Origin: Obrimoposthia wandeli
Taxonomy: Eukaryota
Length of the DNA: 64,000 nt
Direction of reading: 5' to 3'
NCBI GenBank assembly: GCA_977020255.1
Contig: CDROCS010003264.1
Coordinates: forward strand, 62,001 to 126,000
Shown here: positions 54,490 through 54,887 of the stretch, one piece after another
How positions within the stretch are numbered: position 1 is the first letter of the stretch
Layout of the letters: every line of letters begins with the position of its first letter
The notes under the pieces: model-generated
Told to the model about the DNA's origin: nothing
Database searches by the model: none
The model's input: only the letters and a program-made list of their open reading frames with translations
Made by a program: the position numbers and the translations under genes

Positions 54490-54887
54490 TTCATTGCCCC
54501 TAGTTGGCAATTAGGATACTGTCATTACCCCTTGTTGGTAATTCTAAATTTTAAACTAATACACAGATTCATTGCCCCTAGCTGGCAATTAGGATTTCCG
54601 ACTCTTTAACAAAATCATTGCCCCTAGTTGGTAATTAAGTTCTGCCATTTATTCATTGTCCCCAGCGACAATTAGGAATCATACCCAGACTTTTTACCCG
54701 TAAGATTCATTGTCCCTAGCTGACAATTAGGTTCATTCATTGTCCCTAGTTGACAATTCGGATAAATACTCATTGTCCCTAGCTGACAATTCGGTAAGAC
54801 TCATTGTCCCTAGCTGACAATTCGGTTCGTTCATTGTCCGTAGTTGACAATTAGGAGTAAGTTTTTATTGTCATCTTGACAATTAGG
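54490..54887 (+). repeat. Array of 11 dyad/stem-loop units (copy B LTR)
   Basis: ATTGCC-CCTAGTT-GGCAAT, ATTACC-CCTTGTT-GGTAAT, ATTGTC-CCTAGCT-GACAAT and similar. Confidence 0.85.

Follow-up and report, generated by a model that had tools for sequence, protein, structure and literature searches.

An array of eleven inverted repeats in a long terminal repeat (LTR) of the Obrimoposthia wandeli genome raises the question of whether its stems are selected as RNA structure and, if so, what that structure would do. The original prediction, made from a 64,000-nucleotide (nt) stretch of one contig (hereafter, the window), took stems that varied in concert between two copies, A and B, as a sign of such selection. 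Two copies alone are insufficient for this, because a single gene conversion from one unit to another would look like a double substitution, and a larger alignment of many LTRs had been named beforehand as the test. Here we describe that alignment, the LTR in which the array lies, and the functions that can be considered for it.

Anatomy of the array and its host element

Eleven units were located in both copies, within the LTR as had been described, and ahead of the primer binding site (PBS) (Table 1). In the window, the unit pattern with a 7-nt loop was matched 17 times, compared with a mean of 0.11 in 100 shuffled sequences, none of which reached 17. The double substitution between B and A in unit 3, and the G·U of unit 4 in B opposite A-U in A, were found exactly as claimed; unit 7 differs too, being GTC/GAC in B and GCC/GGT in A. 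Across LTRs, the arrays contain approximately 10 to 16 units with stems of 6-7 bp and loops of 5 to 8 nt, and the AUU/AAU base of the stem is nearly fixed. Loop positions 1 and 5 were C and G in 373 of the 376 units and the middle three varied, giving 20 loop types. This C-N3-G constraint looks like that of a loop read by a protein, and a cross-loop C-G pair is possible, which we take to resemble the loops of IRE or TAR. The degenerate twelfth unit has a C·A pair common to three LTRs.

Table 1. Positions of the LTR, array and coding features of elements A and B in the window
Feature	Position	Strand	Details
5′ LTR of element B	53594..55404	+	TGT...ACA; from sequence and LTR-pair comparison
TATA-like box	54037..54046	+	from sequence; transcription start predicted ~30 nt downstream
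ATG-free leader to first gag ATG	54039..56958	+	2.9 kb, no ATG, 27 CAT
16-bp tandem array	54142..54369	+	in predicted exon 1
Predicted major splice donor, GGTAAG	54468..54473	+	GT 54469-54470; GT to unit 1, 24 nt
Copy B array, eleven 6-bp inverted repeats	54493..54883	+	stems ATT(GTC/GCC/ACC) with (GAC/GGC/GGT)AAT; loops 5-7 nt
Copy B unit starts	54493, 54524, 54571, 54617, 54655, 54709, 54739, 54772, 54803, 54833, 54867	+	last unit ends at 54883
Unit 3	54571..54589	+	GCC/GGC (G-C) in B; ACC/GGT (A-U) in A, at 43222-43204
Unit 4	54617..54635	+	GCC/GGT (G·U) in B; ACC/GGT in A
Degenerate twelfth unit	54901..54919	+	
LTR end block, common to all slot families	55071..55404	+	~340 nt; 90/96 sampled PBS-anchored loci
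Predicted poly(A) signal, AATAAA	55191..55196	+	followed by CA and GT-rich tract
PBS	55413..55431	+	complementary to host tRNA-Met(CAT)
Element B: gag frame, CCHC knuckle, env-like fusion protein, PR, BIR	56604..63564	+	Pfam
5′ LTR of element A	42390..44376	-	
Copy A eleven-unit array	42910..43300	-	donor-like GGTAAG at 43326
Element A interrupted polyprotein: env-like fusion protein, PR, BIR, RING, PR, RT, RNase H, IN, dual-specificity phosphatase	25485..39561	-	Pfam
RING accessory ORFs of element A	23983..24720	-	AG acceptor-like sites 1-2 nt before ATG; first ORF interrupted

The LTR that holds the array is 1.8 kb long and belongs to a giant, Burro-like Gypsy element present in thousands of copies; on many contigs the array was found twice, approximately 21 kb apart. 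Repeats bounded by TGT...ACA were present in all four array pairs examined, and a 4-bp target duplication in three of them. The PBS, which occurs 5,371 times in the genome, matches host tRNA-Met genes; in one locus (L200, G000:C2252:1-2577) these genes lie in tandem with a period of ~284 bp, and there were 54 matches in three contigs. The two element copies of the window are divergent, and a Pfam scan covered 17 ORFs. The fusion protein is of the Monjiviricetes type; its domain (PF24664) and the BIR domain (PF00653) were found in both elements. In each of the four 3′ regions examined, the polyprotein is followed by three small RING ORFs whose ATG has an AG 0-2 nt ahead of it. These tandem RING-H2-like ORFs (loci L092, L094, L096, L098), together with the BIR and RING of the polyprotein, are a heavy ubiquitin-ligase load for a retroelement.

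Burro/GYPSM1 of planarians is described as having the same CCHC-knuckle Gag, mononegavirus-like env between gag and protease and BIR, and also the same PR-RT-RH-IN order, accessory ORFs and thousands of copies (PMC6431247). In contrast, Burro exceeds 30 kb while the present element is ~23 kb (~21 kb from LTR to LTR), the ankyrin, MATH and BCL2 domains of Burro were not found by Pfam among the 17 ORFs, and the phosphatase after IN and the three RING ORFs distinguish our element from Burro in the description that was compared, which mentions no LTR hairpin array (PMC6431247). A search with the RT gave no named Burro protein among the 120 matches listed, and the nearest, unnamed, were at 60-64%. 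Because it is shorter, is missing several domains and has no named Burro match among those listed for the RT, we call the element Burro-like and not Burro. Burro elements are reported to be transcribed under PIWI control (PMC8532177).

Several other features of the window were recorded. Partial LTRs of other subfamilies lie at 21640-22899 (-) and 44377-45211 (-), each with GGTGAG (22049, 44592) followed by a different array, the units of which measure 74 bp and 57 bp. Element A thus has a truncated 3′ LTR that comes from another subfamily, which suggests recombination between elements. The region behind IN and the phosphatase (25485-27263, -) had no Pfam match and weak Atlas leads to viral glycoproteins (<0.9); it is possible that it encodes a second envelope-like protein. 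The gag-env spacer had no Atlas match. The gag frame is open for 118 codons ahead of its first ATG (56604-56958), and a non-AUG start is possible. A short palindrome, GACCACGAAGGTC, is common to all four LTR starts and may be a promoter motif, as may the word GGTAAGCACATTT, which is repeated upstream of the TATA box (53878, 43992, 44092, 44912). Other ORFs, from the host or otherwise, are at 46137-46496 (+), 50074-50517 (+) and 16963-17202 (+); an Alba domain and an HMG box were found among them, and one exon without a Pfam match presumably resembles Yip1-family proteins.

Pairing of the stems across the LTR family

The 60 best DNA matches were near-identical to A or B, and for this reason LTRs were sampled by PBS in contig order instead, using 96 of the first 100 PBS places listed. 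The conserved LTR end block was found in 90 of the 96 loci, and at least six units in 37. The alignment was made from A, B and 28 of these 37 arrays that were of similar length (30 LTRs), and nine longer arrays were left out.

With the eleven hairpins as the structure, all 1,955 of the 1,955 stem cells in the alignment paired. The number of cells altered on both arms was 35, compared with a shuffle mean of 11.0 (0 of 500 shuffles), and slid controls gave none; seven pairs had a double change, where shuffling gave a mean of 3.9 (6 of 500). Tests of this kind are inflated by the relatedness of the sequences. Shared variation was found in 14 of 132 stem columns, all of them compatible with pairing, versus 67 of 183 spacer columns. 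Variation of any extent was confined to pairs 4 and 5, and a wobble state was present at all eight variable pair sites, A·C at none. G·U was the majority state of unit 4 (18 of the 30 LTRs), and unit 3 was G·U in five LTRs and U·G in one. On a tree of the non-stem columns, the variable pairs took at least 27 single-base steps. One path can be followed in single steps, GTC/GAC to GTC/GGC to GCC/GGC to GCC/GGT to ACC/GGT, which is the classic G·U route; A·C routes of compensatory change exist but are rarer, according to the account consulted (PMC6961544). Among all arm combinations, pairing within the unit was the sole register unbroken for all eleven units, and reciprocal cross-pairing held throughout only between units 3 and 4 and within the set of invariant GTC units.

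The wobble and mismatched states were also counted genome-wide in the 33,720 units with a CCTAG loop, which are inherited copies and not independent events. There were 4,375 G·U and 1,882 U·G units, compared with 17 A·C and 25 C·A units and four of a transversion mismatch control. The A·C and C·A units were on 17 and 25 different contigs, never two per contig, as would be expected if they were not passed through replication; wobble units, unlike these, turn up in LTR pairs. In four rare-variant spectra, the excess of wobble-making over mismatch-making transitions was at most 2.5-fold.

Selection on RNA structure, as originally predicted, is supported by these family data, namely the wobble excess, the 30-LTR alignment and the single-step path, and the arms do change together through G·U states across the family. 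Judged from these comparisons, selection very probably acts on the sense-strand pairing of the array. Conversion between units could spread a state, and independent origins may be few.

Individually, the hairpins are weak, at -3.6 to -5.7 kcal/mol. The folding energy of the array was unremarkable, with a mean z of -1.5 on both strands (37 LTRs), and did not tell the strands apart. Ensembles of the naked RNA mostly preferred inter-unit helices, which are interrupted in the models, to local hairpins. In the RNAalifold model the donor pairs with the 5′ arm of unit 1, and this pairing had ensemble support in B at limited span, not in A. An Rfam search of the array gave no match at E up to 1.

A predicted donor, a predicted long R region and a swappable slot

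The array had been placed directly behind a splice donor. GGTAAG (30 LTRs) or GGTGAG (7 LTRs) was found 13-21 nt before unit 1 in all 37 sampled array LTRs, so the word is in place, while its use as a donor is a prediction. The word alone is no proof of a donor, since GGTAAG also occurs at 44092, 43992 and 44912, all upstream of the TATA box, and at 43000, within the array. The targets of the donor are likely to be the AG sites ahead of the three RING ORFs.

Downstream of the array, 89 of 90 LTRs have an AATAAA with a GT-rich tract, 195-240 nt ahead of the PBS. Between the TATA box and the array there was no AATAAA in copy B, and there was one or more in 6 of 16 relatives. Because the signal lies downstream, R is predicted to include the array, which would then occur at the 3′ end of spliced as well as unspliced RNAs; the proposal that it remains only in unspliced RNA is therefore probably wrong, as only the 5′ copy would be intronic. 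R would be unusually long, roughly 1.1 kb. Genome searches for an intron-less LTR copy, for a donor-to-RING1 junction copy and for a polyadenylated retrocopy each gave zero. Four sequence runs, consisting of contigs of one sample, contained unit-skipping joints only and no donor joint, and are uninformative on expression.

The 90 LTRs fall into 48 sequence families that fill the same slot, and the hairpin array is one filling and the most abundant (37 of 90). This slot was missed in the original prediction. The other 53 LTRs carry other sequence, mostly unstructured repeats, and 11 of 59 non-array loci fold with z below -2, indicating that hairpins are not required by the element family. For the arrays of the other families, a donor-like word was found immediately ahead in 32 of 46 cases, whereas the array itself contained one in 4 of 46, the opposite strand in 6 of 46 and the sequence farther upstream in 11 of 43. 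A TTGT...ACAA (UUGU/ACAA) stem occurs in 7 of the 48 families, the focal one included; the simulation mean was 1.3 with a maximum of 6 in 1000 and the swapped order occurred once, for a motif that was chosen after the fact. Other slot families have hairpin arrays of their own (L083, L084, L089, L127, L133), and L083 has G·U and Watson-Crick variants of one stem.

Across the slot of the 48 families, ATG occurs at 0.02 of expectation (7 ATG versus 217 CAT) and is the most depleted trinucleotide, whereas U3 has 52 ATG versus 71 CAT. Taken together with the 2.9-kb ATG-free stretch, this depletion suggests that the slot is likely to be in the scanned leader of the unspliced RNA. The array between the TATA box and the donor (54142-54369; 43395-43854) differs even among LTRs sharing the hairpin array, with periods of 13-192 bp, indicating a much faster turnover; copy A has a 29-bp array where B has the 16-bp one.

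Candidate functions and related systems

We tentatively prefer the reading that the array is a multivalent protein-binding strip restraining the predicted upstream donor so that enough unspliced RNA survives, a serious possibility rather than an expectation. Donor control is preferred because the constant feature across the families is an array that starts right behind the donor. Transcription would start behind the TATA box, with the array within the R of ~1.1 kb, and the predicted donor would be joined to acceptors ahead of the three RING ORFs. The weak hairpins would compete with inter-unit pairing, and a protein reading both loop and stem would probably lock each of them during transcription. 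The loaded strip would keep the donor occupied yet seldom spliced, and the occupied donor would also silence the poly(A) signal of the 5′ LTR, as in foamy viruses. The hairpins would stay weak and AUG-free because ribosomes must scan the leader.

A further-reaching proposal, in our judgment unlikely, is that the LTR carries an exchangeable splice-control cassette with a fixed donor and a swappable slot, here filled by a multivalent RNA switch. The 5′ arms near the donor are complementary to it and could mask it, and hairpin formation or protein binding would free it. Donor masking is kept within this proposal because its ensemble support was found in B and not in A.

An export or packaging role is unlikely and ranks behind donor control. 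In this reading, Gag or a different protein of the element would bind the array, which would act in the manner of RRE/RxRE/CTE or psi, and its adjacency to the donor would be incidental. The pairing evidence applies equally, the array is multivalent and sequence-specific, the element has a CCHC knuckle, and Gypsy elements offer a precedent in CERV, described as a dedicated export protein of Cer1 (PMC10309623). However, if the array is in R it is also on spliced RNAs, so that its mere presence cannot mark genomic RNA; moreover, relatives swap it for unrelated repeats, and neither an RNA-binding accessory domain (Pfam, Atlas) nor an Rfam match was found. Tandem arrays of 20, 34, 49 and 109 bp are stacked between the PBS and gag (55462-56572; 41333-42336), and would suit a packaging signal better than the array in R does.

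That no ATG occurs between the TATA box and the first ATG of gag, and that ATG is the most depleted trinucleotide of the slot, would also fit a translational element in the leader, acting as a scanning aid, a shunt or a repressor-binding strip, and weak stems would let ribosomes pass. We consider this improbable, because AUG avoidance spans the whole leader and the unstructured slot families and thus does not explain the pairing, and because this reading gives no reason for the close link between array and donor.

That the array has no function, being a palindromic minisatellite with symmetry from conversion or template switching and wobble from biased mutation or A-to-I editing, is strongly disfavoured and has a small probability. 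It is in line with a slot that holds tandem repeats of many kinds, with the varying unit number, with the weak folding z, and with both wobble types being readable as A-to-G changes. By our reasoning, however, cross-overs in the loop should yield both hybrids equally, and the ratios were 257:1 and 75:1. Palindrome repair would erase G·U, yet it is the majority state of unit 4, and the other stem adenines are almost without A-to-G changes (one cell in the 30-LTR alignment). The scarcity and pairing compatibility of stem variation relative to the spacers argue against it as well.

Dimer linkage, in which the arms pair between two co-packaged RNAs, unit i with unit i′, we hold to be a slightly smaller chance again. 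An intermolecular duplex of the same units uses identical pairs and is compatible with the covariation, the models favour extended inter-unit duplexes, and the palindrome CTAG is present in 230 of 376 loops; 16 of the 20 distinct loops, however, break the palindrome and none substitutes another in the same register. CTAG was the only palindrome found, and a self-complementary loop kept by covariation, as in Psi/DIS, was not seen.

A DNA element, either inverted SOX/HMG-like half-sites, a cruciform or a minus-strand DNA hairpin, would suit a palindromic motif whose commonest arm we take to resemble a SOX-type site, but is very improbable. Independent and symmetrical variation would be expected of half-sites in duplex DNA, the A·C and C·A states that are rare here would be the favoured ones in minus-strand DNA, and the loop length varies.

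Two functions suggested in the original prediction were also disfavoured. TAR is a hairpin at the very 5′ end of the transcript, and in the 16 LTRs in which a TATA box was found, the distance from that box to unit 1 is 194-892 nt. A pre-miRNA or siRNA precursor is a long duplex of roughly 20 bp or more; the stems here are 6-7 bp and the inter-unit helices are interrupted, which speaks against a substrate for small-RNA processing.

The array can be compared with known systems. RxRE, RRE and CTE are single large folds, whereas the present array is a row of 6-bp hairpins without an Rfam match. HTLV-1 RxRE, HIV RRE, MPMV CTE and the Cer1 CERV system are likewise reported cases of structured RNA in retroelements that have to retain unspliced RNA, and RxRE, like the array, lies in the LTR (PMC3694450; PMC10309623). 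In the foamy virus R, the major donor is upstream of the poly(A) signal inside the LTR, so that each end of the RNA contains the two signals. RNA structure at the donor governs access by U1: at the 5′ end, U1 bound there suppresses the poly(A) site, and at the 3′ end the donor is concealed by the fold (PMC3694450). The same donor-then-poly(A) order is present in our LTR sequence, with both sites predicted. The foamy R is 193 nt with no repeat array in the account consulted (PMC3694450), whereas the R here is predicted from the sequence to be ~1.1 kb. Maize Sirevirus LTRs likewise have a fast-evolving, hairpin-capable palindromic region that differs among families, but Sireviruses are plant Copia elements and that region is tied in the source to siRNA production (PMC4728375), whereas the present array has 6-bp stems and a strand-specific wobble bias.

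The unit pattern gave single matches in 25 metagenome and two viral stretches, with no array, and the gag query found no relative among viral contigs. We found no description of the hairpin array in the literature searched, which is not proof of absence; the original Burro description may cover LTR repeats. Hairpin-forming LTR repeats are already known; the covariation evidence for the present array is unusually strong, and its function is a proposal.

Few of the cis-acting RNA elements that balance splicing, polyadenylation and export in Gypsy elements are known. In the present case, the array suggests that an element with an env gene has an R of unusual length and 2.9 kb of AUG-free leader. 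The thousands of genomic copies amount to a natural mutagenesis in which forbidden intermediates can be counted, and the changes of U-A into C-G and of G-C into A-U can be traced in single steps through the wobble states between them. Being short and modular, with natural alternatives in the slot, the array lends itself to direct reporter tests. If the cassette proposal is true, masking and release of the donor would let identical LTRs behave differently at the two RNA ends, and the recurring UUGU/ACAA stem would look as if one host or element protein had been captured repeatedly.
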